Source of the DNA: Thermodesulfobacteriota bacterium
GTDB taxonomy: Bacteria > Desulfobacterota > BSN033 > UBA1163
Direction: 5' to 3'
Length of the DNA stretch: 64,000 nt
Assembly (NCBI GenBank): GCA_049513055.1
Contig: JBEKWN010000006.1
Span: forward strand, 160 to 64,159
Shown piece by piece: positions 24,349 through 41,540 of this stretch (positions within the stretch are counted from its first letter, which is position 1; each line of letters starts with the position of its first letter). The translations under genes and the position numbers were made by a program. The notes beneath the pieces were generated by a model. The model was not told where the DNA came from, searched no databases, and was given only the letters and a program-made list of their open reading frames with translations.

Positions 24349-24392
24349 ATTTCCATTCCTCAGGATTAAGGAATCTTCATCTAAATTTAATC
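24337..24392 (+). promoter_or_regulatory. Double box (aaagattgaatttcc + aggattaaggaatctt + catctaaatttaatc) overlapping the HK stop and preceding the orphan HK
   Basis: Shared motif, see finding. Confidence 0.5.
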
Positions 24393-24529
24393 TCCGTTTA
24401 ATCGTCTTTTCTTAATATTTATACAGGAAAACAAAGGGGTAAAGCCCGCGGTTATAGGGGATTGTAGTCAATATTCATGGCGGACTCCAGCTGCAAGATG
24501 AATATCCACCCGAGTTTTAAGATAAAAAA

Positions 24530-25528
24530 ATGAAAGGCAATTTAGCCCTGGAGGATAGAAGCAGGGCCAGGACATTCAGAGACTTGGTTATCATCTCTGT
24601 AACTGCCGTTTTGGCGTTTGCCATAGCCTATGTTTTTAATCTATTTGAGATGATCGCAGATTTGTCACGGAAACATGTAGGATGGAACATTGATGAATTC
24701 ATTATTGTCCTTGCGATCTTAGCATTCGCTTTTGGGATTTTTTCATTACGGAGGTGGAGGGAATTGAAAGATGAAATTGCTGAGCGCAGGCGGGCGGAGA
24801 AGGAGATCAAAAAGCTGAATGAAGATTTGGAACGCCGGACCATTGAGCTTGAAGCAACCAACAACGAATTGGAAGCATTCAGTTACTCTGTCTCCCATGA
24901 CCTGCGCAACCCGGTGCTGGCCATTGGCGGTTTTTCGCGTCTCTTGTTAGAAAAATACTCAAGCCATCTCGATGAAAAAGGGCATCATTATTTAAATATC
25001 ATACTGTCGAGCACACAAAACATGTGCCAGTTCATTGATGATATTCTTGCTTTCTCTCATTCAGGGCACCGACAAATTGAGTTCTCAGACATTGACATGG
25101 GGGAACTTGCCAAAGCCTTATTTGAGGAACTCAAAGGCATCACCTTAGGACGAATGCTGCGATTGAACCTTAAACCCCTTCCTCCTGCCCGTTGTGATCG
25201 GGCAATGATTCGGGAAGTCCTCATGAATCTGTTGTCCAATGCCATTAAATTTACAAGGGACAAAGAAACTGGTATCATTGAGATGAGTGGGTGGATTGAG
25301 AAAAATCAAAACATCTATTATGTCAAGGATAATGGTGCTGGGTTTGATATGCAGAATGCAGATAAATTATTCGGTGTTTTTCAACGGTTGCACAACACAG
25401 AGGAATTTGAAGGAACGGGTGTAGGGCTCGCCCTTGTCCAGCGCATTATTTATCGACACGGTGGACGAGTGTGGGCTGTAGGGAAAGTCAACGAAGGTGC
25501 CACCTTCTTTTTTTCGCTTCCAAGATGA
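24530..25528 (+). CDS. Orphan membrane sensor histidine kinase (2TM, coiled coil, HisKA, HATPase_c)
   Basis: SHDLRNPV H-box; HATPase motifs; no adjacent RR. Confidence 0.85.
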   Translation: MKGNLALEDRSRARTFRDLVIISVTAVLAFAIAYVFNLFEMIADLSRKHVGWNIDEFIIVLAILAFAFGIFSLRRWRELKDEIAERRRAEKEIKKLNEDLERRTIELEATNNELEAFSYSVSHDLRNPVLAIGGFSRLLLEKYSSHLDEKGHHYLNIILSSTQNMCQFIDDILAFSHSGHRQIEFSDIDMGELAKALFEELKGITLGRMLRLNLKPLPPARCDRAMIREVLMNLLSNAIKFTRDKETGIIEMSGWIEKNQNIYYVKDNGAGFDMQNADKLFGVFQRLHNTEEFEGTGVGLALVQRIIYRHGGRVWAVGKVNEGATFFFSLPR

Positions 25529-25725: not shown

Positions 25726-26856
25726 ATGGAAATGGTCGAGGTGACATACAAAATTTTAGATTCGGTTAGTAAAATCAATAGGAATGATTGGGATTCCGTA
25801 TTCGGAAGTATTCCCGAAGGATATGAGTTTTACCATACGCTTGAAAAGTCAGACCTTAAAGAATTCTCTTTTTACTACTTACTCCTTTATCGAGACGGGA
25901 ATATTCTTTCCATTGCGCCCCTCTTTGTTACTGATTTTTATTTGGATATTGTTTTGGAAGGATTTATTAAAAATGTCATCGGTTTTATCCGTCATTTTGT
26001 ACCCAAATTTTTTATTTTAAAGACGTTATTTTGCGGTTCCCCTTTCAGTGAAAATGGTGTTTTGGGTATCACGAAAGACGTTGGGGATGCCCGTATTCTT
26101 ATTGACGAAATCGTTCAAGTCATGCAAAGATTTAGCAGAGGGAATAAGGTCCCCTTCATTATTTTTAAGGATTTCTTAAGAGAAGATACTTCCCTTTTAG
26201 ATTCCCTTAGACACAAGGGATTTCTTAAGGTTGACAGCTTTCCCTTAGTCAGGATGGAATTGAATTTTAATTCCTTAGAAGAGTATTTTGGAAGTTTAAG
26301 CACTTCCACAAGAAAGGATTTGCGTCGTAAGATAAAAAAAGCTTACTCCAAGGATAAAATCAAAATAAGAGTTGTGGATGACATCGAAGATATCATCGAC
26401 GATGTCTATCCCCTCTATTTAAACACCTATCACGCCGGCGAGGTAAAATTTGAGTTTTTAACCAAAGATTTTTTTATCAATGTCTCAAAAAATTTAAAAC
26501 CGCACACCAAATATTTTCTTTATTATGTGGAAGATCAACTCGCTGCCTTTAACCTCTGCTTTGTATATGATCATTTACTGATCGATAAATTCATCGGTTT
26601 TGATTATGAGATCGCCCATCAATATTCTTTGTATTTCGTCAGTTGGTGTTTTAATATTGAGTGGTGCCTGAAAAATTCGATACGCTACTACCAAGTGGGG
26701 CAAACGGATTATGAACCAAAGTTAAAATTAGGCGGAAGTCTCGTCCCCTTATTCGCCTATTTCAAACACAAAAATTTATTTTTTAATTTAATTATAAAAT
26801 TACTTGCGATATGGCTACTCAAACCAAATTCTTCCATCAGGAATGCAGAAAATTAG
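25726..26856 (+). CDS. FemAB-like / GNAT-fold acyltransferase (PF04339/PF13480-like)
   Basis: 376 aa; N-terminal region resembles FemAB_like proteins; family assignment from memory, moderate. Confidence 0.45.
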   Translation: MEMVEVTYKILDSVSKINRNDWDSVFGSIPEGYEFYHTLEKSDLKEFSFYYLLLYRDGNILSIAPLFVTDFYLDIVLEGFIKNVIGFIRHFVPKFFILKTLFCGSPFSENGVLGITKDVGDARILIDEIVQVMQRFSRGNKVPFIIFKDFLREDTSLLDSLRHKGFLKVDSFPLVRMELNFNSLEEYFGSLSTSTRKDLRRKIKKAYSKDKIKIRVVDDIEDIIDDVYPLYLNTYHAGEVKFEFLTKDFFINVSKNLKPHTKYFLYYVEDQLAAFNLCFVYDHLLIDKFIGFDYEIAHQYSLYFVSWCFNIEWCLKNSIRYYQVGQTDYEPKLKLGGSLVPLFAYFKHKNLFFNLIIKLLAIWLLKPNSSIRNAEN

Positions 26857-27273
26857 ATGCCGAAGCGTAAATTGACCCTAAAAATATTTTTATTTCTTAT
26901 TCTTTCTGATGTGTTAGAGACGTTTCACCAATTTTGTTTTAAGAAAAGCGCTTTATTTGAGGAGGATCCTCCACTCACCGGTTTTTATGACCTTCTCCTA
27001 TTTTTCAAAGTAGTCTTTTCTTCTCCGTTTTTCTGGATTGGTCTCCTCTCCTTAATCATCATGTTTATCATCTGGTCAAGCATCCTTTCAAAAATAGATT
27101 TAAGTATGGCCGTTCCCATCGCCAGTTTCAGCTATATCCTTGTTGCTTTGGTTTCCATCCTTTTTCTCCATGAGACGATCACCCTCCTCAGGTGGATGGG
27201 AATATTTTTAATATTGACCGGCGTGATATTCGTCTCCGTGAGCAGCCGTGTTAAAGAGAGCACTTTGACATGA
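26857..27273 (+). CDS. Small 4-TM DMT/EamA-like half-transporter (ArnE/ArnF-like)
   Basis: 138 aa, four hydrophobic helices; paired with a second similar gene overlapping by 4 nt. Confidence 0.55.
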   Translation: MPKRKLTLKIFLFLILSDVLETFHQFCFKKSALFEEDPPLTGFYDLLLFFKVVFSSPFFWIGLLSLIIMFIIWSSILSKIDLSMAVPIASFSYILVALVSILFLHETITLLRWMGIFLILTGVIFVSVSSRVKESTLT

Positions 27274-27653
27274 AAGAAGGCCAGCTTTTTATTCTAAGTT
27301 TAATTGTATTTACAAGCCTCTGTGACACGTTCAGGGAGCTCTTCTTGAAATCAGGGGTGAATGTTTTAAATCAATTCAATCCCGGGAATATCAAAGAAGT
27401 GATCCTTTTTATTTTGAAATTAATCAGGACTCCGAGGGTGTGGATCAGTTTGCTTTTTGGTTTTCTTTCTTTATTTATTTGGCTCTTTATTTTATCAAAA
27501 GTCGATTTAAATTTTGCTTTCTCCTTAGACAGTATGCACTATATCTTTATTGCCTTGGCCTCTCAGTTCCTATTAAAGGAAAAAGTGAGATTGACGCGCT
27601 GGGTGGGTACCCTCTTCATCGTATTGGGAATCACCTTGGTCACCCTGAGTTAA
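27270..27653 (+). CDS. Small 4-TM DMT/EamA-like half-transporter (ArnE/ArnF-like), partner of previous
   Basis: 127 aa, four TM helices, same architecture. Confidence 0.55.
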   Translation: MKEGQLFILSLIVFTSLCDTFRELFLKSGVNVLNQFNPGNIKEVILFILKLIRTPRVWISLLFGFLSLFIWLFILSKVDLNFAFSLDSMHYIFIALASQFLLKEKVRLTRWVGTLFIVLGITLVTLS

Positions 27654-27664
27654 TTGAACCTTCC

Positions 27665-28906
27665 ATGAGCCTATTCAGAGAAATTCCCCCCACGGCTGGT
27701 TTCCCCCTCTATTGGAAAGATATTTTGTCCGTCTTTAAGGTAAAAGATCCCGAAGACGTTTTGGAGAAGGATTTCAAAAATTACCTTAACGTTGAATATG
27801 CAAAGGTAACATGTTCGGGGACAGTCGCTTTATACCTTATCCTTGAGACCTTGAAAGAATTATCCCCTCGTAAAACGGTCATTATCCCTTCTTTTATATG
27901 CCCTCTCGTTCCCTTGGCCATTCAAAGAGCAGGATTAACTGTAGAGATATGCGACATCAACAAGGGTGATTTTAATTTTAACTTTGAAGCATTAGAGGAA
28001 TTATGCTTAAAAAACCCAGATATCTTAGCAATCGTTCCCGTACACCTGGGAGGGATCCCACTCGATTTTGATCCCATTAAAAATATTTCCAATCCATACG
28101 GGATATTTGTTATTGAGGATTGTGCCCAATCCTTAGGGGCAACTTATCAAGAGAAGAAGGTGGGGACGCTGGGAGATTTTTCTTTTTTCAGCCTCTGTCG
28201 TGGCAAAGGATTAACCCTCTATGAAGGAGGAGTGGTGGTAACCCATCGGAAAGATTACGGCGCTGTGTTGGGAAAAAAGATAGATCAGTTCGTCAAGGAT
28301 GATTTTATTTTGGAAAGCCTGAGAGTCCTCGAATTATTTGGATACTGGCTTTTATACCGCCCCTCTTTTTTCTGGTTTGTTTTCAGCCTCCCCCAAATTT
28401 TCTGGAATCTACAGGGCAAGAAATTCAAAGCCTTCATGGAAGACCTCACCATTGATTTTCCTATTCATCAAGTATCCAAGATGAGAAGATTAATAGGACA
28501 TGTCCATTTCCATCACTTAGAGGAAGAGATAGAGAAACAAAGCCAAAAGGCATCTTATTATATAGAAGGGCTTAAAAACATCGAAGGGGTTCAAGTCATC
28601 AAGGCCCCTGAATATGGCAGGGGAAACTATCCTTATTTAACTTTAATTTTTGATACCCCCGAGAAACGGGAGATGGCTTTAAAACAATTTGAAAATTCTG
28701 GCTTGGGGGTCTCCCAGATTTATGTCTGTGCCATTACGGATTATGACTATCTCAAACCCATCCTCCCTGATCGGCCCTGTCCGAACGCCCGTTATCTGGC
28801 AGAGAGGGAAATCACTTTATCTACCAGTACTTTTTTGAAGGAGGTAGATTTAGATTCGATTTTAAATATATTAGGAGATTTATTAGGAGCTGGCCGGAGG
28901 CGATGA
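27665..28906 (+). CDS. DegT/DnrJ/EryC1/StrS-family PLP aminotransferase (ArnB-like)
   Basis: CSGTVALYL, ...IEDCAQSLGATYQ..., FSFFSLCRGKGL motifs; start ATG 27665 just after the upstream gene stop. Confidence 0.85.
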   Translation: MSLFREIPPTAGFPLYWKDILSVFKVKDPEDVLEKDFKNYLNVEYAKVTCSGTVALYLILETLKELSPRKTVIIPSFICPLVPLAIQRAGLTVEICDINKGDFNFNFEALEELCLKNPDILAIVPVHLGGIPLDFDPIKNISNPYGIFVIEDCAQSLGATYQEKKVGTLGDFSFFSLCRGKGLTLYEGGVVVTHRKDYGAVLGKKIDQFVKDDFILESLRVLELFGYWLLYRPSFFWFVFSLPQIFWNLQGKKFKAFMEDLTIDFPIHQVSKMRRLIGHVHFHHLEEEIEKQSQKASYYIEGLKNIEGVQVIKAPEYGRGNYPYLTLIFDTPEKREMALKQFENSGLGVSQIYVCAITDYDYLKPILPDRPCPNARYLAEREITLSTSTFLKEVDLDSILNILGDLLGAGRRR

Positions 28907-29830
28907 GTGGAGAAGTTCTAAGATGCTGAGATTTGTCCTTTCGTTTATTTCGTTTACCAAAGCATCGGATAGATATTTTGTCTTCAGGTCCTCGGGATGG
29001 TCCAAATACGAAATAAATTTCTTGAGCTTCCCCTTCACTGAAATCTCTGAATAATCTCCGACGATATCCAACCCGATAAGATCCACATGGCCCATGATCA
29101 GTTTTAGCATCCAAAGCAATTCTTTTAAAGAAAGCATTCCTTCTTCCCAATTCGTTAAGGCGTATTCGTTTCTTAAACAATCTTTATCGATGGAGAGGTA
29201 AACCCTTGGGGTGGGGAGACGTTTCAGGATGGAGAATAAATGGTTCATCATGTCTTTCCCCTTCAACTCATTCCAGCTAATCTTATTTACGAATAGGCCC
29301 TTCTTCATTTTGATAGAGAAATTCTCTGGGATCCTTTTGAAAAAGGTAAATGAGGGACGGTGTGAATAAGGATAGATCTCTACCCTATTTCTTTTCAAGG
29401 ATTTCATATTTCCAGTCTGAATCCAGGGACTCGATAGATCCTTGGAAGAAGTCCCTATGAGAATAAACTTCAAAATATTCTTGTTTCTTAAACTCTCGGC
29501 CACCCAAGAACCGCAACCCAGACGGGGGGGCAAGATGTCCCAGTCCGGATGAAAATCGAAAAGGATGACGCAAATCGGTTCGGCAAACTGATTGATTAAA
29601 ATATGGCTCACCTGATGAAAATCACCAGAGCCTAAGAAAGTGACGGAGTTCTTAGCCGAACCGTCGATTCGTTTTTCGATTTCTTTCTTTGTCTTTTTAT
29701 CCAACCAGATTCTTGCCCTGGGTCCAAGATCTTTTAGGTCTATGATTTCGGTTTGATATCGGGAGATGAGGTTTTGTTGTTTGATCAGGCTGTCATCGAA
29801 ATTTAATATGCGAATGGATTTACTTAACAT
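28883..29830 (-). CDS. Arginase/agmatinase-fold protein with degenerate metal-binding motifs
   Basis: LGSGDFHQVSH (cf GGDHS), DFHPD (cf DAHAD), SIDKDCL (cf SxDxDxxDP). Confidence 0.4.
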   Translation of the reverse strand: MLSKSIRILNFDDSLIKQQNLISRYQTEIIDLKDLGPRARIWLDKKTKKEIEKRIDGSAKNSVTFLGSGDFHQVSHILINQFAEPICVILFDFHPDWDILPPRLGCGSWVAESLRNKNILKFILIGTSSKDLSSPWIQTGNMKSLKRNRVEIYPYSHRPSFTFFKRIPENFSIKMKKGLFVNKISWNELKGKDMMNHLFSILKRLPTPRVYLSIDKDCLRNEYALTNWEEGMLSLKELLWMLKLIMGHVDLIGLDIVGDYSEISVKGKLKKFISYLDHPEDLKTKYLSDALVNEINERTNLSILELLHSSPPASS

Positions 29831-29835
29831 AAGAC

Positions 29836-30201
29836 TTATCGATGAGGCGTTTCGTCCTTGGAGGTGGAAGGAATGAAATCCTTTTCAGGAGGAGACTTCT
29901 CAGATGAAGCGGGAGCCTCTTTTGGCGCTGAGGTTTCAGGTGTTCCAGGGCTGTCTGTCATGGAATTGGAAACCGACACGGCCAAATCAGCCAAGAGATT
30001 CTCCCGGGGGAGAGTGCTTTTTATCTCTTGCAAATCCTTCGTTTCAGCCTCAAAACTTCCCTTCATTTCTTCGGTCGATTTTTTGAACTCCTTGATCGCC
30101 TTACCGAGAGCCTTACTAAGCTCTGGAAGTTTTTGCGGCCCAAAGACAATTAAAGCAATGACCAAGATGACCAGCAATTCCGGCAACCCAATATCGAACA
30201 T
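29836..30201 (-). CDS. TatA/TatB-family Sec-independent translocase subunit (longer, TatB-like)
   Basis: N-terminal [28 protein letters not shown] + amphipathic helix. Confidence 0.8.
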
Positions 30202-30275
30202 AAATCCTCCTTTTGATTAAATCCCGAAGGATACTATTTCTCGATGATCAATGGCGTAAAATAGTCTTCGAATTT

Positions 30276-30473
30276 TTATTTTTTCCCTTCAGAAATTTCT
30301 TCGGTATTTTTGGGATCGATACCCATTTTCCCCTTTTCTTTGATGTTCTTCTTGAAGTTCTGAATTCCTTTTCCAAGCCCTTCACCGATCTGGGGAAGTT
30401 TATTGGCACCAAAAATGATCAAGACGATAACCAAAATGACAAGTAGCTCTGGCATTCCTATTCCGCCAAACAT
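30276..30473 (-). CDS. tatA: TatA
   Basis: 65 aa; [30 protein letters not shown]. Confidence 0.85.
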
Positions 30474-30545
30474 ATTTTCCTCCTTTAAAAATATTAAAAA
30501 CCGCCACCTCTCCCGCTTGGGATGGGATAGGATTTTCAGAATATG

Positions 30546-31217
30546 TTACCGGTCACGATAGGTATCTGCAAAGGTTCTATCGGGACGATGGCGTTGCCGT
30601 AAAAATTCCATCACACCGGGTAAAATTGAAATAACAATAATCAGGTAGATAATCAGAGTGAAGTGTTTTTTGACAAAGAGAAGATTACCGAAATAAAAAC
30701 CCCCGAAAACAAAAGCGGCAATCCAGGCAATCCCTCCTGAAATGTTATAAGTAATAAAATGTCTGTAAGTCATCTTCCCAATCCCAGCCACAAAGGGGGC
30801 AAAGGTACGGATGATGGGAATGAATCTTGCTATGATAATAGTTTTCCCTCCATACTTCTCGTAGAACCGATGGGTACGGTCCAGATACTCCCTGTTCAGG
30901 AAACGGACTTTTTCCTTATGAAAAACCTTCGGTCCCACAAAGTATCCTATCCAGTAATTCACTGTATCTCCTGCTACTGCCGCAACGCTGAGAATGGCGA
31001 ATAACCATCCGGCTTTCAGCGAGCCGCTGGCCGCAAAGGTACCTGTAGCAAAAAGGAGAGAATCACCCGGAAGGATGGGAGTCACTACCAGACCTGTTTC
31101 ACAAAAGATGATGAGAAAAAGCAATAGATATGTCCAAACACCATAATTTTGAATGACCCAATTAAGATGCTCACCCAGGTGAATAAAAAGGTCGGTGAAT
31201 CTTGTAAACAGTTCCAT
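30546..31217 (-). CDS. DedA family membrane protein
   Basis: [15 protein letters not shown] motif, multi-TM. Confidence 0.85.
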
Positions 31218-31255
31218 AGATTCTTAATGCGGATTCATTCTGTTTATGGGTAAAC

Positions 31256-32056
31256 CTAAGGGGAAGGGAATATCTGATCCCTAAAAAATTTTATCGTTTC
31301 TTCGGCCACCCGGTCCTTCTGGTTATCGATCGTCATCATGTGATAACTGTCATCCAGAATAATCTTTCGAACGATCTGGGAACCAATTTTCTTTTCGACA
31401 AAATCCGGGTTCTTGGTGCTAGTCAGATCATCTTCTCTGGAGTGGAGGATCAAGGCTGGAGTCGTGATAGCAGGGAGTTCTTTCTTCACCTCTCTGATCA
31501 ACTTGAACAGTTCGTGCATACTCGCAGCCGGAGTCTTTGTATAGGCAATCGAGTCATTTTTCATAAGATTGACAATCCGTTCCCTCAGTGGTTTGTTCTT
31601 TATTCCATATGGCTCTGTCTCCGAATACGAATAAATATATCTAAATGGAATGTAATAGGCGACGGGTAGCAGAAATTTAAACCAGGGGAGGCTCCAGCCA
31701 TCATAAAAAAGAGTCGTCGAAATCAGAGATAAGGCCGCCACTTCTGAACCAAACTCATAGGAGAGGTGAAGGGAGAGAAGGGCCCCCATACAAAGGCCCA
31801 CGACAGATACCGTATCAAAAGATTTCTTCATCTCTATAAAGCTTTTATGGACTGACCGGTACCAATCTTCCCAGTTGGTTTTAGAAAGATTCTTAAGGGT
31901 TGTACAGTGCCCCTCCAGGCAGGGGCCTTTGACGGTGAACCCGGCTTTGTTTAATTTTCTGGCAAGGTATTTCATCTCGAAAGGACTCCCCGTCAGACCA
32001 TGAATGAGCAGCACTGAATGATTTCCGCCAGAGAGGTCTATCTTGTGATCGGACAT
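31256..32056 (-). CDS. Alpha/beta hydrolase (lysophospholipase-like) with Cys in the nucleophile elbow (GLCMG)
   Basis: LLIHGLTGSP oxyanion region; VVGLCMGALLS elbow. Confidence 0.7.
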   Translation of the reverse strand: MSDHKIDLSGGNHSVLLIHGLTGSPFEMKYLARKLNKAGFTVKGPCLEGHCTTLKNLSKTNWEDWYRSVHKSFIEMKKSFDTVSVVGLCMGALLSLHLSYEFGSEVAALSLISTTLFYDGWSLPWFKFLLPVAYYIPFRYIYSYSETEPYGIKNKPLRERIVNLMKNDSIAYTKTPAASMHELFKLIREVKKELPAITTPALILHSREDDLTSTKNPDFVEKKIGSQIVRKIILDDSYHMMTIDNQKDRVAEETIKFFRDQIFPSP

Positions 32057-32066
32057 TTTAAGTTTC

Positions 32067-33437
32067 CTATGCTTTCTTACACTTGCTTATCAGTTGGTCA
32101 AAGAGTTCGACGGCCATCTCCATTTCCCCTCGGGTGATGTGAAGGGAGGGGGCAAGCGTAAATACATTCTTATAATATCCTCCTATGTCAAGAACAAGTC
32201 CATATTTCGATCCCTTATGGCTCAACGTTCCTTTCAACCCTTCAAGAAACATTTTCTCTGCCAATTCCCTGTCAGGGGTAAAACTGTCTGATTTGCAGAT
32301 TTCCACCCTGAAGGCAAGGCCAAGGCCATCCACATCTCCTATCTCCCGGTGTTTCTTCTTGAGATCTTGAAGTAATGAGAGAAAATAAGTTCCGCTTTCT
32401 GAAACTTTCTTTTCATAATCTTCCTCATCAAGCATCGCCATCACCTCAAGGGCAATCCTTGTGCCGAGAGGATTTGATGAAAAAGTCGAATGGGTTGAAC
32501 CAGGAGGGAAGACTGAAGGACTGATCAGAGCTTCTCTGGCCCAGATTCCTGATAAAGGGTTTAGGCCATTGGTGAGTGCCTTTCCAAAAACGATGATATC
32601 TGGACTGACCTCAAAATTCTCGATCGCCCAGAGTTTTCCTGCTCGACAGATCCCCATCTGAATTTCATCATCCACAAACAAGATTCCCCAGTCGTCGAGG
32701 ACTTTCTTAAATCTCTTAAAATAACCCTTGGGCGGCACGATATAGCCTCCTGTCGCCTGGATGGGCTCTACGAAAAAAGCGGCATACTCGGACTCTTTCA
32801 CCTTGGTATCGATGATGGAGTAATACTCTGTCTCAAAAAGCTTTTCAAACTGGGAAATGCAGTAGAAATCGCAATCCTCCCGCTTCTTCCCATAATAACA
32901 ACGAAAGCAGTAGGGATATGGAATAAATTGGGCTCGATCTGAAAAATGGCCATACCTTCTCCTGTAGCGATAACTGGAAGTGATCGCAGAGGCCCCCAGC
33001 GTCCGTCCATGATAGCTCCCCATAAAGGCAAACATCAGATTCTTTCCCTTGGCGTTTCGGACGAGTTTTAGGGCGTCTTCAATGGCCTGGGCGCCGCCAA
33101 CGTTAAAAAGTATTCTGCCCTTTTCTTTGAACCTCCTCATATTCGCAAGACAGATTTTTTCTGCAAGAAGGACCTTCTCCTCATGAAGGTATTGGCAGGC
33201 GAGTTGGGGGAGGGTGTCTATCTGAGTCTTGAATACCTCGCCCAGTCTCGGGTTTTTATATCCAAAACTTGCAGCGGAATACCACATCTGGAGATCAAGA
33301 TAGGGAATATTCAAGCTGTCATAAAGGAAGCTTCCTTCGCATCCTCTGAAGATTTTTGGAGGCTCTGCATAATGGACTGTATCTCCATAGGAACAGTAGA
33401 TCGAATCTTTCTTGATCAGTTCCTCGTCTTTAACCAT
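32067..33437 (-). CDS. Class III (omega) aminotransferase
   Basis: LFVDDEIQMG...FGKALTNG PLP-lysine motif; 456 aa. Confidence 0.85.
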   Translation of the reverse strand: MVKDEELIKKDSIYCSYGDTVHYAEPPKIFRGCEGSFLYDSLNIPYLDLQMWYSAASFGYKNPRLGEVFKTQIDTLPQLACQYLHEEKVLLAEKICLANMRRFKEKGRILFNVGGAQAIEDALKLVRNAKGKNLMFAFMGSYHGRTLGASAITSSYRYRRRYGHFSDRAQFIPYPYCFRCYYGKKREDCDFYCISQFEKLFETEYYSIIDTKVKESEYAAFFVEPIQATGGYIVPPKGYFKRFKKVLDDWGILFVDDEIQMGICRAGKLWAIENFEVSPDIIVFGKALTNGLNPLSGIWAREALISPSVFPPGSTHSTFSSNPLGTRIALEVMAMLDEEDYEKKVSESGTYFLSLLQDLKKKHREIGDVDGLGLAFRVEICKSDSFTPDRELAEKMFLEGLKGTLSHKGSKYGLVLDIGGYYKNVFTLAPSLHITRGEMEMAVELFDQLISKCKKA

Positions 33438-34137
33438 TCCGGGTTCCCCTTAGGCCATGATGGATGAAAGCTCTTTGGGATACAAAACGCTCTTGCCCTA
33501 TTTGATTCCTCAACCATGCAATGATGTCTCCAAATTCCCTGTGCTCACCATGGGGAATTTTTTCAACCCGGCAAAAATCTAAGAGGTCTGATTTGGCGAA
33601 GGTCAAGTCCGCTTTGCCTGCGATGCAAAAATCAGAGCGACCATCGCCTACAAGAATGTTGGTTCCCTCTGGACTGGAAAGTTCTTCCATAATCTTACAC
33701 TTGCAGATGCCGCTTCTGCTCAAACAATCCTCCTGGAAATAGGGGAAGTACATCTCATAGCTCCCGTTTGTAGACCCCAAACTGTTTGAGAACACCCTGA
33801 TATCGTTCAATCCATATCGTTTCAGTATGGATTTTATGAACAGGTCGATCCCATCGCTGAGGATAATGATTTCAAAGGCTTTGCTTCTACAGTACCTTGC
33901 GAAATCGATAAAGGTTTCGTCAATTTCGATCCCTTCCACAAAATCGAGAAGATCACATTCTTTCGCTTTGATGAGCCTGGTCTGCATGGCCAGGCAGTCG
34001 CGGGAACCCATCTCTCCTCTAACCCAGGATTGCTCTATCTCCATCCACGTGGGGTCGGCAAATTCTTCTAAAATCCTGTCGATCACATCCTCCTTCGTGA
34101 TCGTTCCATCAAAGTCACAGAAGAACATATATTTCAT
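33430..34137 (-). CDS. HAD-IB phosphatase (phosphoserine phosphatase / MtnX-like)
   Basis: FFCDFDGTIT motif I; translationally coupled to flanking genes. Confidence 0.7.
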   Translation of the reverse strand: MKYMFFCDFDGTITKEDVIDRILEEFADPTWMEIEQSWVRGEMGSRDCLAMQTRLIKAKECDLLDFVEGIEIDETFIDFARYCRSKAFEIIILSDGIDLFIKSILKRYGLNDIRVFSNSLGSTNGSYEMYFPYFQEDCLSRSGICKCKIMEELSSPEGTNILVGDGRSDFCIAGKADLTFAKSDLLDFCRVEKIPHGEHREFGDIIAWLRNQIGQERFVSQRAFIHHGLRGTRNG

Positions 34138-34138
34138 A

Positions 34139-35377
34139 CTACCCCTCCGTCTTCCTGGCGATGAGAACTGCATTGGTCCCGCCGAAAGCAAACGAATTTG
34201 ACATCACCGTATTCACCTTCACCCCTTTACGACCAATGTTTGGGACATAGTCGAGGTCGCACTCCGGGTCAGGCTGATCAAGATTGGTCGTAGGGGGAAT
34301 GGCTTGATTTTTTATTGCAAGCAGTGAAACAACAAATTCAATGGCCCCGGCCGCTCCGATCGTATGGCCATGCATCGATTTCGTAGAACTCACAGGAACT
34401 TTGTATGCATAATCGCCGAATACCTTCTTGATCGCCTGTGTCTCCAAAAGATCATTCCACTGAGTTGCAGTCCCATGAGCATTGATGTAGTCTATATCTT
34501 CAGAAGAGATCCCGGCCTCTCTGATCGCTTCTGATATGGCTTGTGCCTGTCTTTCAAAAGAGGGTTTGGTCATATGAAAGGCATCGGAGGTAGAGCCATA
34601 GCCAAGGATCTCGGCGTAGAGTGGCGCTCCATGACGGACAGCCCTTTCCATCTCCTCAAGCACTACTACGGCGGCTCCCTCACCCAGCACTAATCCGGAA
34701 CGGTTTTTTGAAAATGGCTTGCAAGACTTCGATGGGTCATCAGGGTCTTCCATAGCCAGGACCCTGAGGGCCTCCCAACTTCGGAAAACCCCATAGGTCA
34801 AAAAGGCCTCGGTCCCTCCTGCGAGCATCACGTCCGCATATCCATCTCTGATCTGTCGAAAGGCCTCACCAATCGCGTTTGAGGACGAAGCACAAGCGGT
34901 GGATACAGTCAAACACGGCCCCGTAAGTCCATACTCTATGGAAAGATAAGAAGCAGAAGCGTTACTCATGATCATCAAGACAGATAATGGTTTCACCCTA
35001 TCTGCGTTTTCCTTAAACAAGCGTACGTACCCATCCTCTATGGCATTCGCACCACCTAACCCTGTCCCCATATATACTCCCGACCGTTCCTTTTCTTTCG
35101 CATCGAGAGATAGCTTTGCATCCTTCCAGGCTTGCGAAGCAGCGGCTAAAGCGAATTGGTTGACGCGGTCCAAGCTGGACACCTGTTTCTTGTTGAAATA
35201 ATCGAAAGGATTAAAATCGACTTCGGCTGCAACTTTTACCGAAAGAAGGTTTGAAAATTCCGAAGAGATTCTTCTGACTCCAGACTTGCCAGCCATGATA
35301 TTGGCTGAAAAATCATTGATATTATTCCCACAAGAGGAAATAACGCCCAGTCCGGTAACCGCGACTCTCCTTCTCAT
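34139..35377 (-). CDS. fabF: Beta-ketoacyl-ACP synthase II-like (KAS)
   Basis: Active-site Cys (TVSTACASS) and His motifs (HGTAT, HGHTIGAAG). Confidence 0.85.
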   Translation of the reverse strand: MRRRVAVTGLGVISSCGNNINDFSANIMAGKSGVRRISSEFSNLLSVKVAAEVDFNPFDYFNKKQVSSLDRVNQFALAAASQAWKDAKLSLDAKEKERSGVYMGTGLGGANAIEDGYVRLFKENADRVKPLSVLMIMSNASASYLSIEYGLTGPCLTVSTACASSSNAIGEAFRQIRDGYADVMLAGGTEAFLTYGVFRSWEALRVLAMEDPDDPSKSCKPFSKNRSGLVLGEGAAVVVLEEMERAVRHGAPLYAEILGYGSTSDAFHMTKPSFERQAQAISEAIREAGISSEDIDYINAHGTATQWNDLLETQAIKKVFGDYAYKVPVSSTKSMHGHTIGAAGAIEFVVSLLAIKNQAIPPTTNLDQPDPECDLDYVPNIGRKGVKVNTVMSNSFAFGGTNAVLIARKTEG

Positions 35378-35414
35378 TTAAATAGAATCCCCACATTCGT
35401 CTCCATGCTCAGCT

Positions 35415-35681
35415 TCAAGTGCTCATCGCTAGATTTGGAGAACTTAACAACTGTTCAGATACGAATCGGTCAATCGCATCAACCATATCTTGTATCGTTG
35501 TCACTTTAAACTCTTGGTCAGGAATTTTTATCCTAAACTCGTTTTCGATATCGAACATGAATTCAATCTTATCGAGAGAATCGAGACCCAAATATTCGAG
35601 CGTTGTTTCAGGTTTAAGTTCTTCAACATTAAAATCAAACTTATCGATAAAAAGTTTTTTAAGTCTCTCTATTGTAGACAT
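35415..35681 (-). CDS. Acyl carrier protein
   Basis: LGLDSLDKIEF phosphopantetheine-attachment motif; 88 aa. Confidence 0.8.
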   Translation of the reverse strand: MSTIERLKKLFIDKFDFNVEELKPETTLEYLGLDSLDKIEFMFDIENEFRIKIPDQEFKVTTIQDMVDAIDRFVSEQLLSSPNLAMST

Positions 35682-35762
35682 CCCTACCTCCTTTTTGGTA
35701 AAAAGATAATTCTTGGCCCTTTCTGCTATGATAAAATTTGAATATTAAAATATCGTTAAAAC

Positions 35763-35784
35763 AAGATTAATTTCCCTTAATCTT
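35763..35784. promoter_or_regulatory. Perfect inverted repeat AAGATTAA-N6-TTAATCTT in the divergent promoter region
   Basis: Direct reading; shares the AAGATTAA half-site with the boxes. Confidence 0.5.
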
Positions 35785-36000
35785 ACTATTATATAGTATA
35801 GAAAAAGGTAAGACAAGAACCCTCACTTAGATTTTGATTGCCTTTTATTTAGCAACGGTAGGTTCTTTTTTTTGGCAGATAATGGATACCACATAAAAAA
35901 TATCACCTTAATTCTAAAAAAGCAAGAAAATTCAATGAAACAACATATTCTCGTTACTGAGGAAATCTAATTTTTATAATTTTGACCTCAATTTCTTCTC

Positions 36001-36044
36001 CAAGATTAAGAAATCTTAATGGAAACTTCATCTATGTTTAATCA
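36001..36044 (+). promoter_or_regulatory. Box copy upstream of GT-C paralog 1 (caagattaagaaatcttaatgg ... cttcatctatgtttaatc)
   Basis: Shared motif; contains IR ATTAAGA-AA-TCTTAAT. Confidence 0.55.
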
Positions 36045-36164
36045 TTTTTTGTGTTATATTAAGAAACTAAAAGTTTATATACTTTTGAAGTGTTCATTTC
36101 GACGGATTGATAAGCTTTTTATATCTTGTTATATAAGTATCGATTTAGAAGGGACTTTAGGTTG

Positions 36165-37766
36165 ATGGATGTGAGGAGAAAATATATCTTTGGGTTACTC
36201 GCCATAGGGATGGTTCTCTTCTTTTTCAATTTGGGAGGAAGGGATCTCTGGGAACCCGATGAAACCCGGTATGCCGTGGTGGCCCGCGAGATGGTGCAAA
36301 GCGGGGATTGGATTTTACCTCATTTCAACAGGGAGATTTATGCAGAAAAACCTCCTCTCTTTTTCTGGTTGGTCAATCTCTCCACTTTCTTTCTAGGAGA
36401 AAACAACGAGTTGTCCAATCGCCTTCCTTCTGCCCTGGCAGGGTTGATGACCCTTTTCATCACATTTCTTTTTGGAGAGAGACTCTTTAATCTCAGAGTC
36501 GGATTCCTTTCCGCTTTGGTGCTGGGGACATGTATTTTGTTTCCCCAATTATCGCGTTGGATGATGCTCGATTCATTGTTTACCCTTTTTTTACTCTTGA
36601 GCCTTTTTTATTTTTATCTTGGTTACGAGAAAGAGGGGAGTCGCCGGAAATATTACTATCTCGCCAGCCTCTTTATGGGGCTGGGGGTTTTAACGAAAGG
36701 GCCTATTGGTTATCTTCCTCTTCCCATCCTCCTCCTCTTTGCCTTTTTTCAAAAAGACGTTAAGAAATTTTGGAATCGCGATTTGCTATGGGGATGTCTC
36801 CTCTCCTTGATTCTTGTATTGATCTGGTGGTTACCTGCTTGTTGGATTGGGGGAAAAGAATATATCTATTGGCTCTTGTTTAAGCAAGCCGTTGGAACTT
36901 ATGTAGAGGGGGGAAGACATTTTCATCCTGAGTCATTCTATTTCTACTTTGTCCGTTTCCCGATAGAATTTTTTCCGTGGATCGTTTTTTTGCCCACCGC
37001 ATTTGTTTTAGGGTTACGAAGGGACTTTCGCAAAAGAAAAGAATTCGTATTTCTCTCCATCTGGTTCTTTTTCATTTTCCTTTTCTTTACCCTCTCCAAA
37101 GGGAAGAAGGATAATTACCTTTTACCCCTTTACCCAGCTGCCGCCATGATGGTCGGGAGTCTATGGGATTTTGGGGTTCAGTCAGGGGAGGGGAAGAAAG
37201 GATTCCTATCTGGACTTCTTCTTTTAACCTTTCTGTTTCTCGCCGGCCTGGTTCTGTTCCTATCAAAAATGCCACAACAGTCCTATCCAGACATGACGGC
37301 CTATTCTTCTTTAGGGCTTTCCATTCTCTCTTATATCCTGCTTGGGTCCTTTTTCTCTCTGTTGTTTTTTATTAAGAAAAAGAAACAGGCCTCGTTCATC
37401 AGCCTTATGATCGCTTTCGCTCTTTTCCATCTTCATCTCTCCTATTCTCTTCCGCCAAAACTCAATCCCCAGAGGTCAGCCAAGGCATTTTCAGAGAAAG
37501 TTCTAAAGAGAATGGAGATGGGGGATGAACTTAAAACTTATTCCCTTAAGTCTAATGGATTGCTTTTCTATACCCAGAAACCCTATATAGAGAGTATTCA
37601 AAGCAAAGATCGCTTTTTTGAAATTCTCAACTCCTCCCAACGAGTTTTTGTTGTGTTTTATCCGGAAGTCCTTAATCAACTTCAGAAAGAAACAGGAGTT
37701 GAGTTCACTCCTCTTGAACAGGTGAAGGTAGGCCATTGGAAATATGTTCTCATTTCAAATCATTAA
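36165..37766 (+). CDS. GT-C glycosyltransferase, ArnT/PMT_2-like, paralog 1 (full length with C-terminal periplasmic domain)
   Basis: DETRYAVVAREM...AEKPPLFFW signature; 12+ TM; ORF could start at 36126. Confidence 0.8.
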   Translation: MDVRRKYIFGLLAIGMVLFFFNLGGRDLWEPDETRYAVVAREMVQSGDWILPHFNREIYAEKPPLFFWLVNLSTFFLGENNELSNRLPSALAGLMTLFITFLFGERLFNLRVGFLSALVLGTCILFPQLSRWMMLDSLFTLFLLLSLFYFYLGYEKEGSRRKYYYLASLFMGLGVLTKGPIGYLPLPILLLFAFFQKDVKKFWNRDLLWGCLLSLILVLIWWLPACWIGGKEYIYWLLFKQAVGTYVEGGRHFHPESFYFYFVRFPIEFFPWIVFLPTAFVLGLRRDFRKRKEFVFLSIWFFFIFLFFTLSKGKKDNYLLPLYPAAAMMVGSLWDFGVQSGEGKKGFLSGLLLLTFLFLAGLVLFLSKMPQQSYPDMTAYSSLGLSILSYILLGSFFSLLFFIKKKKQASFISLMIAFALFHLHLSYSLPPKLNPQRSAKAFSEKVLKRMEMGDELKTYSLKSNGLLFYTQKPYIESIQSKDRFFEILNSSQRVFVVFYPEVLNQLQKETGVEFTPLEQVKVGHWKYVLISNH

Positions 37767-38677: not shown

Positions 38678-39655
38678 ATGAAGCTTTTATTGATTGGCGT
38701 AGGAAGGTGGGGCAAGAACCATCTGAAGGCTCTGGTGAACCTCGTCGACGAGCTTTATGTGGTGGACTACGATCCGAGTCAACTGAAAGTCTGCAAGGAA
38801 TACTCAATTCCTGAAGATCATCTTTCCACCGATTATCGTGATTTTCTTGATCGCGTGGACGGGGTAGACATCGTTACGCCAGCGGATGGCCATCTGGGAA
38901 TTTGTAAGCACTGCTTTGAAAAGGGGAAGGATGTCTTTGTAGAAAAACCGATTGCCCTGACCACCCAAGAGGCAAAAGAGATGATCACTCAGGCCAAAGA
39001 GAATGGGATGATTCTACAGGTAGGCCATCTTTATCGGTATCATCCAGCCGCTTCGAAAATAAAACAGATCCTTGAGGAAGGGAAATTGGGCACCATTCAA
39101 TACGCCTATGGTCATTTCATGGGATTCAAAAGACCTAGAACGGATGTCGGCGTGACCCAAACGGATGCGATCCATTATTTCGATCTTTTTAATTATCTCT
39201 TTCATGAGCCCCCTCAAGCGGTCACGGCCGTTGTAAAAAATTACCTTCACCTTTCTCTTGATGATACCTCTGTCTCAGTCTTGGACTATCATGGAAAGAT
39301 CGTTTTTGTCGAAGCGGGGTATATGCCCCCTGAAAAAAGAAGAGATATTGCCATGGTTGGAGACCGAGCGAGCCTTTATTGCGACTTCCAAAAAAATTCC
39401 CTTCTCTTCTGTGAGAATCGACACGAGAGACAAGAGGGAAAATGTGTCGCTGTGGAAGGAGAAGCCCGAGGCATTCCCATAGAGCTTGAAGAGCCCCTGA
39501 CGATAGAATTAAAAGCGTTTCTCAATTCGATGAAGAATCGGTCCAAGCCCTTAGCAGATGGGCAGGCGGGCTTTGAGGCATTGAAAATTGTTGAAGTCTG
39601 TTATGAGTCCTCTCGGAGTGGAAGGAGATTGGAGATTGAATGGGAGAAAATCTGA
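38678..39655 (+). CDS. Gfo/Idh/MocA-family NAD(P) oxidoreductase (sugar-nucleotide dehydrogenase-like)
   Basis: MKLLLIGVGRWGKNHL Rossmann N-terminus; EKP motif. Confidence 0.85.
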   Translation: MKLLLIGVGRWGKNHLKALVNLVDELYVVDYDPSQLKVCKEYSIPEDHLSTDYRDFLDRVDGVDIVTPADGHLGICKHCFEKGKDVFVEKPIALTTQEAKEMITQAKENGMILQVGHLYRYHPAASKIKQILEEGKLGTIQYAYGHFMGFKRPRTDVGVTQTDAIHYFDLFNYLFHEPPQAVTAVVKNYLHLSLDDTSVSVLDYHGKIVFVEAGYMPPEKRRDIAMVGDRASLYCDFQKNSLLFCENRHERQEGKCVAVEGEARGIPIELEEPLTIELKAFLNSMKNRSKPLADGQAGFEALKIVEVCYESSRSGRRLEIEWEKI

Positions 39656-39676
39656 CATTCAGGGAAAGGAGTTAAA

Positions 39677-40792
39677 ATGAAGGTTCCTCTTTCTAAACCT
39701 TACATCGATAAAGAAATGAAAGATCGCGTATTAGAGGTGATTGATTCTGGACAATATATTTTGGGAGGCCAATGCAAAGACTTTGAAAAAGAGTTTGCCC
39801 AATTCATCGGAGTGAAACACGCCGTCCTCACCTCCTCAGGAACCTCCGCCATTTTTTTGTGTCTCAAGGCTTTGGGGGTCAAAGAAGGCGATGGCGTTTT
39901 GGTTCCCTCTCTCACCGCCTTTCCCACCATCGAACCCGTGTTTCATGTTGGAGCCAGACCCATTTTCATCGATATTGATGATACCTTTACCGTCGATCCA
40001 AAACATATCGAATCGGTTTTAAAAAATAGGAACCAGATATCGGGGGTCAAGGAGATCAAAGGAATTATTCCTGTACATCTTTACGGTCACCCTGCCCATA
40101 TGGATTCCCTTCTTGATCTGGCAAAGCGTTATGGACTTTTCGTTTTGGAAGATTGCTGTCAAGCCCATGGTGCCAAATATAAAGGGAAAAGGGTAGGATC
40201 AATGGGAATTGGCGGTTGTTTCTCTTTCTATCCTTCGAAAAACCTGACCGTTTTTGGAGATGGTGGAATTCTTGTCACCCCGGATGATGAGATGGCCAAG
40301 ACCTGTCGAATGCTGAGAGATCACGGTCGAAAAGAGAAGTATGAACATGAACTGGTTGGATATAATTTGAGGTTTAACGAAATCCAAGGGGCAGTGGGTC
40401 GCCTCCAACTTCGAAGGTTGGACTGGTTTAATGAATCGAGAAGGCGCATCGCTCAATGGTACAGCGATGGATTAAAGGGAATTCCAGTGACTACACCTCA
40501 GGCAAGGGATTGGGCTGAACCTGTCTATCATCTTTATGTCATCCAAACTCCCCATCGGGATGAGCTGGCTGATTTCTTAAAAGAGAAAGGGATTCAGTCA
40601 GGGATTCATTATCCTATTCCAAATCATCAACAACCAGCCGTTCGGAATGCTCTCGGTCAGCAGCCCAAACTGGAAAAGACAGAAGATACGGTCAAGAAAA
40701 TTCTCTCCCTGCCCATCTACCCAGAACTCGAAAAAGAGAAGGTGGATTTTGTGTGCGCCACCATCAGAGAGTTCTTTCATCAAAAAAGTTGA
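39677..40792 (+). CDS. DegT/DnrJ/EryC1/StrS-family sugar aminotransferase
   Basis: SSGTSAIFL, EDCCQAHGAKYKGKRVGS, FSFYPSKNL motifs. Confidence 0.9.
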   Translation: MKVPLSKPYIDKEMKDRVLEVIDSGQYILGGQCKDFEKEFAQFIGVKHAVLTSSGTSAIFLCLKALGVKEGDGVLVPSLTAFPTIEPVFHVGARPIFIDIDDTFTVDPKHIESVLKNRNQISGVKEIKGIIPVHLYGHPAHMDSLLDLAKRYGLFVLEDCCQAHGAKYKGKRVGSMGIGGCFSFYPSKNLTVFGDGGILVTPDDEMAKTCRMLRDHGRKEKYEHELVGYNLRFNEIQGAVGRLQLRRLDWFNESRRRIAQWYSDGLKGIPVTTPQARDWAEPVYHLYVIQTPHRDELADFLKEKGIQSGIHYPIPNHQQPAVRNALGQQPKLEKTEDTVKKILSLPIYPELEKEKVDFVCATIREFFHQKS

Positions 40793-41539: not shown

Positions 41540-41540
41540 A

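Follow-up and report, generated by a model that had tools for sequence, protein, structure and literature searches.

Does a long minus-strand gene run in a Thermodesulfobacteriota bacterium serve bulk fatty acid synthesis (FAS), or does it encode a specialised pathway, and which of its genes belong together? The run lies within a 64,000-nucleotide stretch of contig JBEKWN010000006.1, hereafter the window. Its genes code for an acyl carrier protein (ACP), a FabF-like β-ketoacyl-ACP synthase (KAS), a phosphatase of the haloacid dehalogenase (HAD) superfamily, a class III aminotransferase (AT) that binds pyridoxal phosphate (PLP) and an alpha/beta hydrolase, followed by a DedA-family membrane protein, two Tat proteins and an arginase-fold protein (ArgL). 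We found that the first five genes form a widespread, uncharacterised cassette, which is joined in some loci by an optional five-gene set, presumed to decorate and flip the product, and lies behind a probable switch of the PmrA-box type, with DedA and Tat as bystanders.

Co-occurrence was counted by tblastn of all window proteins against 86 loci, and gene architecture by unbiased clustering of the open reading frames (ORFs) of 83 non-redundant loci, with ORF families taken from a crude ORF caller. Near the AT gene, the adjoining HAD gene was found in 84 of the 86 loci, the KAS in 45, the hydrolase in 35, a homologue of the window's response regulator in 34 and the ACP in 31. FemAB-like, EamA, DegT-like and arginase-fold genes accompanied it in 20-23 loci each (arginase-fold in 20, mostly next to the FemAB-like gene), TatA in 5, the TatB-like gene in 3 and DedA in 2. 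ACP, KAS, HAD, AT and hydrolase (31256-35681) are a conserved cassette shared across phyla. Its AT is strongly conserved, with more than 6,500 database proteins matching at E <= 1e-20, many of them 65-70% identical although from unrelated phyla. Scanning one genome per species, we detected relatives in at least 588 species. The best 80 of these (62-91% identity) span the Desulfobacterota, Acidobacteriota, Omnitrophota, Planctomycetota (Planctomycetia), Methylomirabilota (Methylomirabilis), Nitrospirota (Nitrospira), Proteobacteria, Chlamydiota (Parachlamydiales) and Bacteroidota; they include Legionella steigerwaltii, Extensimonas vulgaris, Hyphomicrobium and Magnetococcales, and all belong to double-membraned lineages. 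We found no published description of the cassette in the literature searched, whose coverage was incomplete, so that an earlier characterisation is possible.

The HAD gene lies directly upstream of AT on the same strand in 69 of 71 loci, and at least one acyl-handling gene stands beside the pair in 73 of 82. In the AT, the PLP-binding lysine K286 and R377 are invariant in 81 of 81 sequences, as are four cysteines (C177-x2-C180-x8-C189-x3-C193; window positions 32859-32909), which substitute ordinary residues of the nearest solved relative, an archaeal enzyme, without any insertion. This signature may mark a metal or Fe-S site; no annotation of this kind exists for class III aminotransferases in the libraries searched. 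The protein belongs to Pfam family PF00202, PLP lysine included, and reaches no NCBIfam equivalog threshold. Its nearest solved structures are the archaeal Ala/Ser racemase 9wqz and enzymes resembling γ-aminobutyrate aminotransferase (GABA-AT), and it also matches enzymes acting on phospho(no)-amino alcohols, namely the PbfA family (232 bits) and ethanolamine-phosphate phospho-lyase (6tor, 123 bits).

The HAD protein carries DFDGT as motif I and matches PDB entry 2fea (87 bits) as well as PF06888 (49 bits), a family which we take to include phosphoethanolamine and phosphocholine phosphatases. It passes only the broader MtnX-like subfamily TIGR01489 and fails the MtnX equivalogs (NF007103, 129 versus 292; TIGR03333, 102.7 versus 303), and no methionine-salvage (mtn) genes lie near it. 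A weak similarity to phosphoserine phosphatases was also found (TIGR00338, 35.8 bits; a match to PDB 1f5s). Two further assignments were weighed and rejected. A biotin pathway of the BioC/BioH/BioA type fell far below threshold (BioA 184 versus 405, BioC 28.6 versus 185), with no BioF, BioD or BioB, and the hopanoid side-chain genes HpnO/I/J/K were set aside as improbable in view of the families to which they belong.

An initial annotation of this DNA had proposed that the ACP, KAS, aminotransferase and phosphatase form a specialised module rather than serve bulk fatty acid synthesis. This is borne out by the travelling together of the five genes across phyla, by the grouping of their KAS proteins and by the scores of the ACP. 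The latter has a DSL phosphopantetheine site, retains the FAS-type DSLD...E..F pattern in helix II and is 41% identical to Escherichia coli AcpP. With the AcpP equivalogs it scores 46-51 bits against cut-offs of 66-106 (TIGR00517, 45.8 versus 70.45; NF002149, 51 versus 106), and with DltC 16.6 against 68. The KAS scores 493.3 against the fabF cut-off of 493.75 (TIGR03150), passes the subfamily PRK07314 (498 versus 387) and appears, from an alignment with Bacillus subtilis FabF, to keep the condensing Cys and two His. It is 54-60% identical to cassette KAS of other phyla, compared with 47% to B. subtilis FabF and 42% to E. coli FabF, which share 54% with each other; likewise, the Sulfuricaulis cassette KAS is 57% identical to that of the window and 40% to E. 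coli FabF. The KAS phylogeny that had been suggested as a check was made as a neighbour-joining tree, in which 29 cassette KAS from several phyla formed one clade apart from the two housekeeping FabFs taken in (E. coli and B. subtilis), with moderate support (70 of 100 bootstraps), and the KAS of hydrolase-type loci grouped in 77 of 100. No fabH, fabD or fabG domain was found in the 50 larger window ORFs scanned. Because of the KAS clade and the sub-threshold ACP, a housekeeping role in fatty acid synthesis is unlikely.

The hydrolase is of the bacterial monoacylglycerol-lipase/Est30 type, its nearest solved relatives being monoacylglycerol lipases (PDB 5xks, 120 bits). The cysteine elbow described for it earlier is indeed present (Cys89, in GLCMG), so that the protein departs from the Ser-Asp-His triad and G-x-S-x-G elbow of its kind while matching in fold and family. 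The cysteine does not define the family, however: of 28 homologues, 20 have Ser as the nucleophile and 8 have Cys, with Cys in all four hydrolases of the window's own lineage, and Asp209/210, His239 and the oxyanion HG motif are present in all 28. The elbow would fit covalent acyl-enzyme chemistry. Two more alpha/beta hydrolases, one of the dienelactone-hydrolase family and a second Hydrolase_4 protein, are encoded in the window at 6758-7564 (plus strand) and 14228-15022 (minus strand), with no evident link to the cassette.

In L. steigerwaltii and one other gammaproteobacterium, a fatty-acyl-AMP ligase (FAAL), an ACP and the hydrolase are joined in a single protein of ~1,000 residues, with the hydrolase at its C-terminus, and the fusion gene stands beside the HAD and AT genes. 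No KAS was found in the 21-kb Legionella locus (none within 10 kb). The fusion indicates that the hydrolase stands directly after an acyl-ACP and that the carried group is a fatty acyl chain. It further indicates that the KAS is the supplier of the chain rather than the source of the carbonyl that is aminated.

The layouts flanking the HAD-AT pair are mutually exclusive: 24 loci are of a hydrolase type and 42 of a type with a PaaK-like ligase, and none has both. In the hydrolase type, to which the window belongs, the hydrolase follows AT and the set is accompanied by ACP-KAS, by two EamA genes with DegT and by ArgL-FemAB. In the ligase type, an adenylating ligase resembling PaaK, DVU_1553 or FlxY flanks the pair. 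Its Acidobacteriota version contains ACP-KAS, a GT28 glycosyltransferase resembling monogalactosyldiacylglycerol (MGDG) synthase, a polysaccharide deacetylase of the NodB type, an ABC-2 exporter and a radical SAM enzyme of small size, and looks like a glycolipid pathway. We saw this ligase layout at L075:3278-11368 and in many other Acidobacteriota loci (L011, L017, L028 and others), often with a sigma-54 regulator as well. In the Planctomycetia and Omnitrophota, the ligase type has paired KAS genes together with FabA-like dehydratases, a ketoreductase, a phosphopantetheinyl transferase, LPG_synthase_TM and a CDP-alcohol phosphatidyltransferase, a combination that, in loci of the L089 kind, suggests a phospholipid head-group variant. 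At L089:2648-15471 (and in L010, L014, L020, L034, L035 and L050), HAD-AT is set inside a type II array like those of FAS or polyketide synthase (PKS) systems, in which KAS and a FabA-like dehydratase are each encoded twice, alongside a ketoreductase, an ACP and a phosphopantetheinyl transferase; LPG_synthase_TM, the CDP-alcohol phosphatidyltransferase and a class V aminotransferase adjoin it.

The conserved partners extend beyond the genes first considered. The arginase-fold gene and the convergent FemAB-like, double EamA and DegT-like genes are a second conserved sub-module. In L088 everything is found as a single block, HAD-AT-hydrolase-ACP-KAS-EamA-EamA-DegT followed by convergent ArgL-FemAB, and L003/L004, L012, L018/L019 and L087 carry this gene set too, along with a two-component system and, in some cases, PAP2 or MipA. 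The arginase-fold gene (minus strand) and the DegT-like gene (plus strand) converge and overlap at their 3' ends by 24 nt (28883-28906), as they do in L003 and L088. In the arginase-fold protein, H72, D92, H94, D96, D215 and D217, assigned from motifs as binuclear-metal ligands, are invariant in 17 of 17 homologues. The protein passes the arginase/ureohydrolase Pfam threshold and stays far below the agmatinase equivalogs (17-20 versus 174-302), and a search against PDB sequences returned only a marginal match (E 0.94).

The DedA and Tat genes behave differently. DedA, which the initial annotation had taken as a hint of lipid flipping, stands beside the cassette only in the window's own contig among the 86 loci and is absent from the close relatives L007 and L009. 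In no lineage but that of the window (L001/L002, L008, L009) does TatA adjoin the cassette, apart from an extra match 9 kb away on the opposite strand in the Nitrospira locus L054; the TatB-like gene near the cassette is likewise confined to this lineage, and no TatC was found among the window ORFs scanned. DedA, TatA and the TatA/B gene are lineage-specific insertions or passengers outside the conserved system. Because they are not conserved, they cannot support lipid flipping for this pathway, and across the 86 loci this lack of conservation rules them out as pathway members. In L009, a 91%-identical relative, tatA comes after the hydrolase, and the two-component genes follow it directly. 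L007 (87%) has no DedA, TatB, ArgL, FemAB or DegT-like genes; there, one EamA gene, another GT-C glycosyltransferase gene and two further ORFs replace the DedA/Tat/ArgL/FemAB block (L007:12619-16274, minus strand). Downstream of the cassette there appears to be a hot spot at which envelope-modification genes are swapped.

Divergent from the ACP gene lies GT-C1, the first gene of a plus-strand envelope-glycosylation run. The promoter region between them had been described as carrying two copies of a shared box, and one direct-repeat array indeed faces each operon. Arrays of three TTAAT-like repeats with 10-11 bp spacing gave 4 hits at 3 loci of the window, compared with ~0.2 in shuffled sequence. 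These loci are the regions before ACP, GT-C1 and a histidine kinase gene. A strict scan for four repeats at 11 bp gave only the site upstream of the kinase; three repeats at 10-11 bp recovered both arrays of the spacer. The relative L007 has the same array upstream of its ACP gene, and a search of nine loci from other phyla for exact 6-mer direct repeats upstream of the cassette found none. Exact TTAAK-N5-YTTAAK boxes are rare, with ~19 sites in the 1.48 Mb of fetched loci, yet in L005 (Sulfuricaulis), L007, L038 and L063 (both Omnitrophota) and L067 such a box directly precedes the first cassette gene. The AT-richness of both intergenic DNA and motif somewhat inflates this enrichment. The PmrA box consists of CTTAAG/XTTAAT half-sites with a 5-bp spacer, as found at the pbgP/arn promoter (PMC3973317). 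A direct repeat of this form, hexamer, 5 bp, hexamer, is present at the promoter described here.

The boxes are presumably read by the adjacent two-component system of the OmpR family, for which the window offers one response regulator and two kinases as candidates. The response regulator is nearest to the CopR/CzcR type (263.9 versus 279) and scores 186 against 330 with the PmrA equivalog, and so is not a PmrA orthologue; it is the DNA motif together with the gene neighbourhood that points to a PmrA-like circuit. The second histidine kinase (24530-25528) resembles the kinase half of Leptospira LvrA, with 232 bits against a cut-off of 1200.

As to what the cassette makes, our preferred reading, to which we give a probability of roughly 45%, is a specialised amine bearing an acyl chain, most likely a lipid of the envelope, or a building block for lipids, of the N-acyl amino-alcohol type. 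The AT would aminate a phosphorylated carbonyl metabolite, such as a triose or pentose phosphate, and the translationally coupled HAD enzyme would remove the phosphate, either directly or after acylation, to give an amino alcohol. Because the HAD-AT pair is constant and translationally coupled, consecutive steps would be expected. Amination of a small phosphorylated carbonyl followed by dephosphorylation is suggested since the HAD protein passes the MtnX-like HAD-IB subfamily and matches PF06888, since the better matches of the AT include PbfA and ethanolamine-phosphate phospho-lyase, and since the cassette lacks a reductase or oxidase by which the acyl chain could acquire a carbonyl. This chain would come from the dedicated ACP and KAS, with the ACP being loaded via KAS here, by FAAL in Legionella and by a ligase elsewhere. 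The hydrolase, with its Ser/Cys-Asp-His residues, would then accept the acyl group from the ACP, forming an acyl-enzyme, and hand it on to the amine; its place would be taken by the adenylating ligase in the alternative architecture. The sub-module of ArgL, FemAB, two EamA proteins and DegT is presumed to decorate and flip the product, and the cassette and the divergent ArnT-like glycosylation operon share PmrA-type direct-repeat boxes. An envelope lipid fits better than a soluble product because of the GT28, deacetylase, exporter, LPG_synthase_TM and CDP-alcohol transferase genes of the variants, and because of the ArnE/F-like pair, FemAB-like transferase and ureohydrolase-fold gene of the window. 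Serinol, aminopropanediol, an aminopentitol or an amino acid are candidate amines, among which sequence alone cannot decide.

A more far-reaching version, which we regard as tentative and clearly less probable, is that the cassette represents an unrecognised cross-phylum pathway to an amide-linked amino-(poly)ol membrane lipid, for remodelling of the envelope under an ancient circuit of the PmrA-box type that would predate the enterobacterial Arn system. The lipid might be a ceramide-like N-acyl serinol or aminoglycerol, or carry an aminopentanetetrol-type head group. Its users would be double-membraned bacteria from peat, soil and groundwater, and Legionella.

Several points weigh against the amino-alcohol proposal. 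The amine and its precursor are guesses, and with an Ala/Ser racemase and GABA-AT-type enzymes as its nearest solved relatives, the AT may act on an amino acid or as a racemase. The hydrolase may do no more than a thioesterase does, and one N-acyl chain attached to a small amino alcohol does not make an obvious bilayer lipid. Only about half of the loci have a detectable KAS and ACP, many contigs are truncated, and the ORF families depend on the crude caller mentioned above. The response regulator is closer to CopR/CzcR than to PmrA. Finally, the nine genes of the run may not form a single transcript.

Other products have to be weighed against an N-acyl amino alcohol. The cassette might instead make a β-amino fatty acid, for which zeamine- or iturin-type systems offer precedent: KAS would make a 3-oxoacyl-ACP, AT would convert it to the 3-amino form, and the hydrolase would release or transfer the β-aminoacyl group as a cationic envelope substituent. 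Such a route needs no substrate from outside the cassette. The KAS lies immediately upstream of HAD-AT here and in many loci, its condensing residues appear intact in the alignment, and class III aminotransferases are generally known to accept keto groups without an α-carboxylate. It leaves the phosphatase without a role, however, even though HAD is the most constant partner of all (84 of 86), about half of the loci show no KAS, and FAAL loads the acyl chain in Legionella, where no KAS stands within 10 kb. We consider this route unlikely.

Slimmer still are the prospects of an aminoacyl-carrier route like those of Dlt or AlmEFG, in which the phosphatase and an aminotransferase or racemase would supply a (D-)amino acid, for example serine, that is passed from the carrier to an envelope acceptor and lowers its negative charge. 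The racemase structure nearest to the AT, the weak phosphoserine-phosphatase similarity of the HAD protein, the adenylating ligases that stand in the hydrolase's place in 42 loci and the presence of a PmrA-type box and a FemAB-like gene are all consistent with it. Yet the KAS looks like an intact elongating enzyme of the conserved cassette clade, the ACP is far from the DltC cut-off, the Legionella fusion contains a fatty-acyl-AMP ligase rather than an amino-acid adenylation domain, and the window has no adenylating enzyme.

We find it harder again to credit a diffusible small molecule, be it an N-acyl amine signal, a surfactant or a polyketide-alkaloid-like metabolite, with the EamA pair as its exporter. 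Export is a frequent function of EamA-family proteins, and some variants resemble aryl-polyene or PKS clusters in their KAS pairs, FabA-like dehydratases and ketoreductases. Clusters of type II PKS with an aminotransferase do yield alkaloids such as koreenceine (PMC6498172). The window, however, has no reductase or cyclase, all of the best 80 genome matches are double-membraned, the box is of the type used for genes of lipid A remodelling (PMC3973317), and the neighbours are envelope genes: ArnT-like GT-C, PAP2, MipA, LPG_synthase_TM, the CDP-alcohol transferase and the GT28 lipid glycosyltransferase. It is highly improbable that the ACP and KAS genes are no more than housekeeping acpP and fabF of this organism beside unrelated neighbours, for although the KAS comes within a fraction of a bit of the FabF cut-off at 47% identity to B. 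subtilis FabF and the ACP has a FAS-type helix II, the ACP falls far under every AcpP cut-off, fabH, fabD and fabG are not nearby among the ORFs scanned, the same ACP-KAS pair accompanies HAD-AT-hydrolase in several phyla, and the cassette KAS cluster together, away from E. coli and B. subtilis FabF.

Each comparison with a known system failed on a defining feature, and the cassette is therefore not a member of the AcpXL, Arn, ornithine-lipid or serinol-phosphate systems, which offer the nearest parallels to it. The AcpXL/FabF1XL-FabF2XL/LpxXL system of Rhizobium and Brucella provides the very-long-chain fatty acid of lipid A, and there, too, a dedicated ACP and FabF-like KAS feed a special outer-membrane acyl chain apart from housekeeping FAS. 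It is not known to have the phosphatase, class III AT and alpha/beta hydrolase of the cassette, and neither an LpxL-family acyltransferase nor a FabZ-like dehydratase was found in the scanned ORFs within ~15 kb either side of ACP/KAS. Ornithine-lipid (OlsB/OlsA) and N-acyl amino acid synthases N-acylate a small amine from acyl-ACP to make phosphorus-free or cationic lipids, often under stress, and acyl-ACP-dependent N-acylation of a small amine is also what we propose for the cassette. In the cassette, however, transfer would be by the alpha/beta hydrolase and the amine made in situ by the AT-phosphatase pair, and no OlsB-type GNAT or PlsC-type acyltransferase domain was found. For serinol and serinol phosphate, the N-terminal domain of RtxA and the Campylobacter jejuni pair of Cj1437 transaminase and Cj1435 HAD phosphatase are reportedly responsible. 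There, a PLP transaminase acts on a triose phosphate together with a HAD phosphatase, and the amino alcohol ends in an amide; those transaminases, though, are not known to be of class III, and the acceptor is capsule glucuronate rather than acyl-ACP.

In the Dlt and Vibrio AlmEFG systems, which are under two-component control, a charge-modifying group is brought to the envelope on a small carrier protein, but they are not known to have a KAS and instead have an amino-acid adenylating enzyme and MBOAT or LpxL-like transferases. The Arn system (PmrHFIJKLM/pbgP) shares with the window PmrA-type boxes (PMC3973317), an ArnE/ArnF-like EamA pair, a DegT-family enzyme, an ArnT-like GT-C, an ArnC-like GT2 and an OmpR-family two-component system. 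Its equivalogs were missed by far (ArnE/F 34-41 versus 92-99, ArnB 83 versus 631 and, for GT-C1, ArnT 188 versus 567), no ArnA or ArnD domains were found among the scanned ORFs, nothing in Arn corresponds to the ACP/KAS/HAD/class III AT core, and the response regulator is, as said, not PmrA. In koreenceine synthesis, too, an ACP and ketosynthases act together with a PLP aminotransferase, and nitrogen is introduced into a fatty or polyketide chain (PMC6498172), but KecF has a fused aldehyde-making reductase, HAD phosphatase and monoacylglycerol-lipase-like hydrolase are missing, and the product is a secreted alkaloid (PMC6498172).

The layout of the run itself (Table 1) had been described as a tightly packed operon of eight genes from ACP to TatA/B, divergent from the GT-C locus. 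The ORF listing and profile searches upheld the domain identities of all eight, but the run does not end with them: the arginase-fold gene starts 5 nt past the stop of the TatB-like gene on the same strand. The divergence also held, with a spacer of 444-483 nt between ACP and GT-C1, and the position of GT-C1 is kept in L007 and L009. A single pathway operon did not: the run is a mosaic of the conserved five-gene cassette, the lineage-specific DedA/Tat genes and the arginase-fold gene of the second sub-module. Nor is overlap of 4-8 nt the rule, since it is confined to the HAD/AT junction (8 nt) and all other junctions are gaps of 37, 1, 10, 38, 72, 74 and 5 nt. A strong ribosome-binding site, AAAGGAGG, precedes ACP, and the ATG of HAD at 34137 has GGAGG 8 nt upstream. 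A consensus scan of 28700-36200 for intrinsic terminators and promoters gave counts at or below chance inside the run; at such counts the scan is silent on transcript structure, and operon continuity is neither shown nor refuted. No leader or riboswitch was found in the 444-nt spacer by an Rfam scan of the whole window. The window comes from a peat or soil metagenome contig, identical loci are present in ENA and JGI assemblies, and the closest genomes are metagenome-assembled genomes of Thermodesulfobacteriota ('delta proteobacterium').

Table 1 Features of the cassette, its surroundings and the Legionella-type fusion (window positions unless a locus is named; scores in bits, with cut-offs where given)
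Feature	Position	Strand	Remarks
ACP	35415-35681	-	88 aa; PP-binding PF00550, 43.7; cassette gene 1
FabF-like KAS (KAS II-like)	34139-35377	-	412 aa; PRK07314, 498
HAD-IB phosphatase, MtnX/PHOSPHO1-like	33430-34137	-	TIGR01489, 120.4 versus 81.55
Class III (omega-type) PLP aminotransferase	32067-33437	-	456 aa; PF00202, 232.4 versus 30.5
Alpha/beta hydrolase	31256-32056	-	elbow G-L-C-M-G; PF12146, 64.6
DedA-family membrane protein	30546-31217	-	PRK10847, 256 versus 236; VTT PF09335, 73.9
TatA	30276-30473	-	65 aa; TIGR01411, 63.3 versus 53.9
TatA/TatB-like	29836-30201	-	121 aa; TIGR01411, 68 versus 53.9; TatB TIGR01410, 58.9 versus 56.5
Arginase-fold metallohydrolase	28883-29830	-	315 aa; PF00491, 26.4 versus 22; last gene of the run
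Box facing ACP	35742-35784	-	direct repeats TTAAG/TTAAT/TTAAC/TTAAT, 10-11 bp spacing; ends ~60 nt before the ACP start codon
Box facing GT-C1	36004-36042	+	direct repeats ATTAAG, CTTAAT, CTTCAT, TTTAAT
GT-C1, GT-C/ArnT-like glycosyltransferase	36126 or 36165 (gene caller) to 37766	+	PMT_2, 86.9
OmpR-family response regulator	22269-22946	+	Pfam; candidate box regulator
Sensor kinase	22918-24348	+	Pfam; candidate regulator
Third box	24376-24404	+	CTTCAT-N5-TTTAAT-N5-TTTAAT; upstream of second kinase gene
Second kinase	24530-25528	+	Pfam; own TTAAT box upstream; candidate regulator
FemAB-like/GNAT	25726-26856	+	Pfam/NCBIfam
Two half-size EamA, ArnE/ArnF-like	26857-27273 and 27270-27653	+	Pfam/NCBIfam
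Divergent DegT-family PLP enzyme	27665-28906	+	Pfam/NCBIfam
FAAL-ACP-hydrolase fusion	L052:12043-15078 and L072:11985-14990	-	beside HAD and AT genes

Beyond the cassette, the window holds five GT-C/PMT_2 (ArnT-like) paralogues, at 10948-12600 (minus strand) and at 36126-37766, 41928-43406, 43381-45153 and 50354-52006 (plus strand). With them are found two ArnC-like GT2 genes (40814-41539, 52028-52753), LAB_N (41517-41897), a Kdo/WaaP-like kinase (48726-50348), AsmA (9180-10880) and Lnt (20642-22207). The paralogues and their associated genes are a large envelope-glycosylation island. At 38678-40792 (plus strand), a full-length DegT aminotransferase comes after a Gfo/Idh/MocA oxidoreductase, which scores 165 bits, below cut-off, with the UDP-GlcNAc 3-dehydrogenase family. 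This pair resembles GnnA/GnnB, which we take to be the makers of the 2,3-diamino sugar in some lipid A backbones.

If the proposed pathway is correct, hundreds of environmental and some host-associated double-membraned species would share an undescribed route to a nitrogen-containing lipid, with the acyl chain drawn from its own ACP/KAS or from FAAL and with the same type of promoter box as the lipid A remodelling behind enteric polymyxin resistance. The circuit of the PmrA box would then extend far beyond the Enterobacteria. The cassette would offer candidate genes for orphan amino-lipids of environmental lipidomics, and with two cultured carriers identified, its five genes are few enough for heterologous expression. 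What it encodes would be a new lipid class with a biosynthetic logic of its own, in which a sugar phosphate is aminated and dephosphorylated and then acylated from ACP.

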